DNA from: Escherichia coli
Lineage (GTDB): Bacteria > Pseudomonadota > Gammaproteobacteria > Enterobacterales > Enterobacteriaceae
Reading direction: 5' to 3' (one strand)
NCBI RefSeq assembly: GCF_003334405.1
Contig: NZ_QOWM01000003.1
Length of the DNA: 64,000 nucleotides
Below are positions 19,085 to 19,180 of the stretch, piece after piece (position 1 is the stretch's first letter; each line of letters begins with the position of its first letter). The notes under the pieces were generated by a model that had not been told where the DNA came from, did not search any database, and was given only the letters and a program-made list of their open reading frames with translations. The position numbers and the translations under genes were made by a program.

Positions 19085-19180
19085 GACGTGCTACGCCTGT
19101 CAGGCCTATTCGACTCCTGCAATGTATTGAATTTGCATAGTTTTATAGGTCGAATAAGGCGTTCACGCCGCATCCGGCGT
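19085..19180. repeat. REP/BIME repetitive extragenic palindromes
   Basis: Contains GCCTGTCAGGCC-type and GGCGTTCACGCCGCATCCGGC REP units; near-identical to the block at 26220..26340. Confidence 0.8.

Follow-up and report, generated by a model that had tools for sequence, protein, structure and literature searches.

Two blocks of similar sequence lie on the same strand in a 64 kb stretch of the Escherichia coli chromosome (referred to here as the window, meaning the whole of that stretch), raising the question as to whether one of them was copied locally from the other or whether both are members of a repeat family that arrived at their sites independently. The window is reversed relative to MG1655 1.81-1.83 Mb and has the gene order ves, cho(-), nadE(-), osmE(+), chbBCARFG(+), katE(-), of which 12 kb are found at 100% identity in many strains. 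A first-pass annotation of the window described a near-identical REP/BIME block of about 65 nt, at 19110..19175 and 26265..26330, as being duplicated at cho-nadE and chbG-katE. Its gene names are correct: one copy is situated 3′ of nadE and 5′ of cho, the other in the spacer where chbG and katE converge, 3′ end to 3′ end, and both are thus extragenic, at gene 3′ ends, bounded by stop codons or a gene start. In this stretch the MG1655 annotation has no repeat features.

The resemblance between the blocks is strongest over a core of 63 nt (19116-19178 and 26262-26324) that is 92% identical, with five substitutions (19124 G/A, 19138 T/C, 19145 A/G, 19150 T/C and 19153 A/G). A repeat search of the window extends the ungapped similarity to 123 nt (19065-19187 and 26211-26333) at 81% identity, and over the complete unit of ~155 nt described below it falls to 72%. 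The sequence and the variable positions quoted in the first-pass annotation were accurate, with coordinates displaced by ~3-6 nt, and "near-identical" is an apt description of the core and not of what lies beyond it; of the 85% identity that had been proposed as a floor, the core stays well clear, while the two wider spans lie below. The blocks are direct repeats with a spacing of 7146 nt. They also account for two look-alike spurious ORFs on the + strand (19064-19255 and 26201-26416), which had been noticed at the outset to have a peptide motif in common (LRLSGL..SCN.LNLHSF.GRIRRSRRIR) and which an annotator should suppress.

What, then, is the repeated unit? BIME-1 elements are also known as RIP (repetitive IHF-binding palindromic element) or RIB (reiterative IHF BIME). 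Their definition comprises a z1 and a y REP in inverse orientation, each an imperfect palindrome with GTAG at its 5′ side, and a long, well-conserved L linker that frequently contains an IHF site (PMC3333891; PMC2817692). Each of our blocks consists of an inverted z1 REP with a CTAC end, an AT-rich linker of 35 nt, and a y REP with a GTAG start (Table 1), an arrangement that is recognizable in the cho-nadE copy although degenerate there. A pattern scan with the IHF consensus WATCAANNNNTTR finds one match with 1 mismatch in each linker, and the only difference between the copies inside this predicted site falls in its NNNN spacer. We conclude, with a probability of roughly 0.93, that each block is a member of the BIME-1 family of E. 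coli, independent of the other. The REP/BIME reading was therefore right and can be sharpened to BIME-1, with its inverted z1 REP, L linker carrying an IHF consensus, and y REP. As first noted, the finding is an already known and long-described E. coli intergenic repeat, and the first-pass annotation is a sighting of a known family that was right in kind and wrong in implying a local duplication.

Table 1. Features of the two blocks and their neighboring genes, in window coordinates.
Feature	Position	Strand	Observation or basis
cho	18107-18994	-	
cho-nadE copy, left external flank GATGACAAAGGTTACACC	19063-19080	+	Aligns with family left flank; outermost ~6 nt missing
cho-nadE copy, decayed inverted z1 REP GTCTGACGTGCTACGCCTGTCAGGCCTAT	19081-19109	+	CTAC changed to CTAT
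cho-nadE copy, L linker	19110-19144	+	3/34 mismatches to the other copy; Rfam ES036 match
cho-nadE copy, IHF consensus-like site ATTCAATACATTG (WATCAANNNNTTR, 1 mismatch)	19120-19132	-	Pattern scan
cho-nadE copy, decayed y REP ATAGGTCGAATAAGGCGTTCACGCCGCATCCGGCG	19145-19179	+	GTAG changed to ATAG; 2 mismatches to y pattern
cho-nadE copy, replacement 10-bp perfect hairpin GTTCACGCCG-CATC-CGGCGTGAAC	19161-19184	.	~40 nt downstream of nadE stop codon
cho-nadE copy, right external flank, degenerate	19180-19212	+	Aligns with family right flank
nadE	19224-20051	-	
chbG	25374-26123	+	750-nt gene
Solitary y-type REP, opposite in orientation to the doublet's y REP	26135-26165	-	81% complementary to 26295-26325; DNA hairpin -8.4 kcal/mol
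chbG-katE copy, flanking hairpin, left copy AGGCGGCGTAACTGCGCCGC (direct-repeat copy 1)	26181-26200	.	Within-locus score 30, control maximum 20
chbG-katE copy, left external flank TTGAGACTGCTGACAAACGCAAAACT, terminal-inverted-repeat-like	26201-26226	+	Family alignment
chbG-katE copy, canonical inverted z1 REP	26227-26255	+	REP scan; DNA hairpin -8.5 kcal/mol, z -3.9
ATCAGGCCTAC, natural IS621 target sequence, inside z1 REP	26245-26255	+	PMC11208160
chbG-katE copy, L linker	26256-26290	+	Rfam ES036 match
chbG-katE copy, IHF consensus-like site ATTCAATATATTG (1 mismatch)	26266-26278	-	Pattern scan
chbG-katE copy, canonical y REP, 5′ GTAG at 26291-26294	26291-26325	+	0 mismatches to y pattern; DNA hairpin -12.2 kcal/mol, z -4.4
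chbG-katE copy, right external flank	26326-26354	+	Family alignment
chbG-katE copy, flanking hairpin, right copy AGGCGGCGCAATTGCGCCGC (direct-repeat copy 2)	26355-26374	.	
Full stem GAGGCGGCGC/GCGCCGCCTC of right flanking hairpin	26354-26377		4 nt before katE stop codon
katE	26381-28642	-	

The anatomy of the family was taken from an alignment of the two window copies with 19 further Escherichia copies found by an exact scan for the linker core. The linker is of the long, conserved L type and not the short S type of BIME-2, and there is a single unit per site. Conservation continues outside the REPs into a left flank of ~25 nt, (T)GAGAYTGATGACAAACGCAAAACT, and a right flank of ~30 nt, TGAACAAAGCGCACTTTGTCAACAATCTGA, the outer ~16 nt of which form imperfect inverted repeats, [CG]AGAYTGNTGACAAAG; the terminus of the unit, in the form suited to comparison with insertion-sequence ends, is CAGATTGATGACAAAG. 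With these conserved flanks the unit is ~155 nt long, which is why the similarity between the two blocks runs to 123 nt. When the 123-nt cho-nadE block is used as a query, each of the 5,426 complete E. coli genomes is matched at no fewer than ~40 places (median at least 40), a figure in which REP-only matches are counted, since the query includes the highly repeated y REP, and which is not a count of BIME-1 units; for MG1655, several dozen BIME-1 are reported. Like other members of the family, the window copies have z1 and y REPs in inverse orientation around an L linker with an IHF consensus, are non-tandem, occupy extragenic 3′ ends and belong to a repeat with many copies per genome; the chbG-katE copy shows no departure from the family, whereas the cho-nadE copy is degenerate, with ATAG and CTAT tags and both REP hairpins weakened.

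The two copies also differ in age and distribution. The cho-nadE copy is present at ≥95% identity in 5,402 of 5,474 records and is fixed in E. coli; the copies nearest to it are orthologues that occupy the same site in E. whittamii and Escherichia sp. E1V33. It is an ancient insertion, older than the split of E. coli from these two. Comparison with the two orthologues reveals 11 E. coli-specific changes, nine of which are transitions; six (all transitions) are in the z1 REP, three in the y REP (19145, 19150 and 19179), one in the linker and none in the IHF consensus. A pair of changes in the z1 stem, 19087 T>C and 19099 A>G, is compensatory and converts a T-A pair to C-G. The z1 DNA hairpin is nonetheless predicted at only -3.5 kcal/mol (z -0.86), as against -8.5 kcal/mol in the chbG-katE copy, and the canonical y hairpin, at -12.2 kcal/mol in the chbG-katE copy, is no longer predicted at all. 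The E. coli-specific A>G at 19179 creates the hairpin at 19161-19184, which is the structure found in the predicted fold of the nadE-sense RNA and 3′ UTR. The cho-nadE copy is thus a fossil that has lost both the GTAG and CTAC tags and both canonical REP hairpins but has kept the L linker and the IHF consensus. Separately, we note that between this BIME-1 and the start of cho, at 19010-19025, there is a sequence of the form CTG-N10-CAG, CTGGTTATCTATCCAG, which is kept in E. whittamii and Escherichia sp. E1V33 and which is consistent with being the LexA box of cho, an SOS-inducible gene.

The chbG-katE copy is canonical and polymorphic. Counting as present any genome in which at least 80% of window 26000-26500 is covered, the spacer with BIME-1 occurs in 1,931 of 5,426 complete genomes (~36%), such that roughly a third carry this haplotype; in a 60-row sample spread over the ranking, ~22 have a 257-nt spacer and ~37 a 46-nt spacer. 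The short allele, represented by CFT073, O157:H7 and 2015C-3163, contains an unrelated hairpin, AAGGTCACTCCCCAGGGGACGTGACCTT, and has different synonymous codons at the katE end. It was considered as an empty site and ruled out, being a replaced haplotype with a different hairpin and not one half of a filled/empty pair. As an observation in its own right, the spacer exists in two deeply diverged haplotypes, one of 257 nt with the REP and BIME-1 (window 26124-26380) and one of 46 nt (three reference loci, L023, L030 and L031), and the chbG 3′ end (750 versus 759 nt gene) and the last katE codons differ between them as well, which suggests recombinational replacement.

Several other rearrangements and look-alikes were encountered in this region. 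In E. coli STEC367 an IS110-family element (2754-3920 of the retrieved segment, L024), whose transposase is annotated as frameshifted, resides in the z1 REP of the chbG-katE BIME-1. Its insertion point corresponds to window 26253/26254, right after ATCAGGCCT and inside ATCAGGCCTAC, the IS621 target (PMC11208160). On the right of this element, the linker differs from the window at no fewer than 8 positions, and no Rfam family matches at the ends of the element. In NZ_CP148427.1 and NZ_OY754443.1, which are otherwise 100% identical, the equivalent of window 17000-29000 is matched in two pieces spanning 12,777 nt versus 12,001, pointing to an insertion of ~776 nt (IS1-sized) somewhere within it. 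A 262-nt contig assigned to 'Desulfosporosinus sp. OT' (NZ_AGAF01000060.1) is 99.2% identical to window 26235-26496, covering BIME-1 and the katE end, and almost certainly represents E. coli DNA contaminating that assembly.

Could the two copies nevertheless have a more direct relationship, or none? A chance resemblance of two GC-rich palindromic terminators would account for the extragenic 3′-end position that they have in common and for nothing else, and we regard it as next to inconceivable: a 34-nt linker pattern and a y-REP pattern of 30 nt have exactly two matches apiece in the 64 kb and none in 100 dinucleotide-preserving shuffles, and both blocks contain the same AT-rich linker of 35 nt. 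The production of one copy from the other, by local duplication or gene conversion over 7 kb, has more in its favor, since direct repeats separated by only 7146 nt share a 63-nt core at 92% identity, and both contain the CCTGCAATNTATTGAATTTGCA variant of L, for which an exact scan returns only ~2 matches per genome in two divergent E. coli-named reference genomes. Those matches, however, sit at other loci. Over the full unit the copies are only 71.9% identical to each other, whereas the chbG-katE and cho-nadE copies are respectively 92.9% and 78.9% identical to the family consensus (which is drawn from 19 loci chosen by an exact 21-nt L-core match, biasing the L region and not the REPs or flanks), and an E. 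albertii copy at metE-ysgA matches the chbG-katE copy at 91% identity. Among the 20 copies compared, the cho-nadE copy ranks only 15th as a neighbor of the chbG-katE copy, and the latter 9th as a neighbor of the former. The cho-nadE copy was in place before E. whittamii and Escherichia sp. E1V33 diverged from E. coli, ~63% of E. coli genomes do not have the chbG-katE copy, and the sequences flanking the two have nothing in common outside the unit. A local origin is accordingly very unlikely, and the word "duplicated" does not hold: from these comparisons the two copies descend separately from the family, neither being the source of the other. As to recombination between them, a synthetic query for the 7.1-kb deletion junction, in which the cho side is fused to the katE side within the repeat, found none in 5,426 complete E. 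coli genomes, although the substrate for such an event is present in only about a third of these; direct repeats such as these would not be expected to give the inversion that the first-pass annotation had proposed looking for alongside the deletion.

A further alternative is that the blocks are copies of a small RNA gene and that an RNA product, rather than a DNA element, is the functional entity. Both L linkers match the Rfam model RF02751 (ES036, also CssrF) at full length and above its gathering score of 37.6 bits, with 55.5 bits at chbG-katE (26248-26290, - strand) and 42.9 bits at cho-nadE (19102-19144, - strand), and the 5-bp stem of the model, UGCAA/UUGCA, is intact in each. In both instances the upstream gene (katE or nadE) is itself encoded on the - strand, and ES036 RNA would therefore probably be made as part of a 3′ UTR. 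Against this, the 43-nt model spans the L linker and the CTAC edge of z1, and is in effect the BIME-1 linker, part of a repeat matched at dozens of sites in each genome; in the window it falls within 3′ UTRs, and a promoter consensus scan of both spacers yields no promoter-like site. The stem amounts to only 5+3 bp, with two of the three outer pairs non-standard at chbG-katE and one of three at cho-nadE, and the palindrome overlaps the IHF consensus. A literature search on ES036 and CssrE returned no relevant paper. We consider an sRNA gene unlikely, and membership of the BIME-1 family remains the reading that we prefer. A second RNA family, naRNA4 (RF02564, the REP325-derived nucleoid RNA), was rejected, its scores of 39.7 and 26.9 bits being below the gathering score of 59.5 and reflecting a likeness to the y REP only. 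Elsewhere in the window, Rfam matches above the gathering score are seen for Phe_leader (43233-43357, +; 75 bits) and for the enterobacterial sRNA STnc540 (47198-47356, +; 67.4 bits).

The roles initially suggested for the blocks, as terminators, mRNA stabilizers or recombination substrates, are those generically attributed to REPs in the literature. For termination, a simple consensus scan for intrinsic terminators (a hairpin followed by a T-run) over 18900-19300 and 26050-26450 detected nothing resembling a terminator in the two spacers, on one strand or the other; it covered the REP hairpins and also the flanking GGCGGCG hairpins, whose T-tracts are weak and for which a terminator role is putative, on the strength of their sequence context. 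By analogy with what is described for the family, the L linker as double-stranded DNA would be bound and bent by IHF, in keeping with a consensus match with 1 mismatch, while the REP and flanking hairpins, as part of the 3′ UTR of each transcript (nadE, katE and chbG), may impede 3′-5′ exonucleases and may attenuate read-through, as reported in the literature.

Mobility can be considered in similar terms. The enzyme in question is TnpA-REP (yafM), a REP-associated tyrosine transposase (RAYT). For binding and cleavage it requires GTAG on the 5′ side and a mismatched stem (PMC3333891). In the chbG-katE copy a GTAG precedes an imperfect palindrome whose stem contains a mismatch (-12.2 kcal/mol), and this copy would qualify as a substrate; the cho-nadE copy, with ATAG and no REP hairpin, would not; the latter is for this reason probably immobile. 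The chbG-katE copy shares with REPINs two inverted REPs, the 5′ GTAG and an intact stem mismatch. BIME-1 units differ from REPINs in that they are often bracketed by direct repeats of 19-23 nt, and the cho-nadE copy differs also in lacking GTAG.

These direct repeats warrant a closer examination. At seven of 13 independent loci, including chbG-katE, BIME-1 is bracketed by a directly repeated, locus-specific and GC-rich hairpin of 19-23 nt that abuts the ends of the unit. Scores between left and right flanks within six of these loci range from 25 to 41, compared with a maximum of 20 in 182 between-locus controls. The loops of the paired hairpins are same-strand copies (TTTC/TTTC, AAC/AAC), and the duplication is therefore direct and not inverted. 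Loci recorded with a bracketing hairpin are, besides 26181-26200/26355-26374 in the window, L004, L011, L012, L014, L015, L017, L027 and L029. The cho-nadE copy has no flanking direct hairpin repeat, and its E1V33 orthologue has a 7-nt trace only, AGGCGGG, on both sides.

Pairs of empty and filled alleles are available at three loci, and each empty allele has a single hairpin. At tcdA-mltA both alleles occur within E. coli, with 2,756 genomes filled; at metE-ysgA, E. albertii is filled and E. coli empty; and at cmoB-torZ, E. whittamii is filled and an E. coli isolate empty. Of the two hairpins in a filled allele, the one nearer the gene has lost its T-tract and the distal one retains it, whereby the unit is embedded in the 3′ UTR. 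For the chbG-katE copy, where the direct repeat is present and the alternative haplotype has a different hairpin, no matching empty allele was found. Two further loci are uninformative: at prohibitin-tkt the examined strains without a full-length match have a different neighboring gene, and L017 is in an accessory region present in only 48 genomes. The cmoB-torZ terminator also carries BIME-1 in opposite orientations, y-L-z1 in the K-12 type and z1-L-y in others, with the same left junction (DH1 L033 compared with L006 and L011), which points to an inversion between the two REPs or else to insertions that took place independently.

Taken at the level of the family, terminal inverted repeats, a target duplication and single-copy empty sites are all seen, as in MITEs, and the comparisons suggest that BIME-1 lands on transcription-terminator hairpins and duplicates them. 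In its full form, the proposal is that BIME-1 is a MITE-like mobile unit of ~155 nt with imperfect terminal inverted repeats of ~16 nt, which inserts at intrinsic-terminator hairpins and directly duplicates the whole hairpin; we advance this tentatively, thinking it somewhat more likely to be wrong than right. Insertion with hairpin duplication would build the unit into the 3′ UTR and would not remove the terminator. A duplication as long as the palindrome might, speculatively, arise by staggered, structure-directed cleavage at both bases of an extruded hairpin or cruciform, although to our knowledge this is no property of the RAYT/HUH enzymes thought to move REPs. Nor do we know of target duplications made by HUH/Y1 transposition, or of a cognate DDE transposase for BIME-1. 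Class C group II introns provide a precedent for a mobile element that lands at a terminator stem-loop, inserting just after intrinsic terminator hairpins; they are, however, retroelements, encode a protein within the intron and leave the hairpin unduplicated, whereas BIME-1 is non-coding and 155 nt long. The closer likeness in structure is to bacterial MITEs such as Correia elements and ERIC, which are similar in size (~155 nt), in being non-coding, in having imperfect terminal inverted repeats of ~16 nt and in their flanking direct repeats; the difference is that the direct repeat of BIME-1 is a whole terminator hairpin of 19-23 nt, in place of the usual target duplication of 2-10 nt. Correia elements also carry an IHF site (PMC3184786). 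One review describes REPs as being without MITE signatures. We found no mention of hairpin duplication around BIME-1 in the literature examined, outside of which lie the original BIME, RIB and 1997 polymorphism papers, and the novelty of the observation is uncertain.

The identification of BIME-1 in itself matters little, and the hairpin-duplication signature is the sole part of this analysis that might repay further work. The side-by-side occurrence of a fossil and an intact copy provides a natural comparison for judging what parts of the element persist, and the presence in the intact copy of an exact natural IS621 target, occupied in some strains, bears on the use of REPs by bridge-RNA recombinases. 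If the hairpin duplication is indeed undescribed, it would provide a testable clue to the insertion of BIME-1, which is not accounted for by what TnpA-REP is known to do in vitro.
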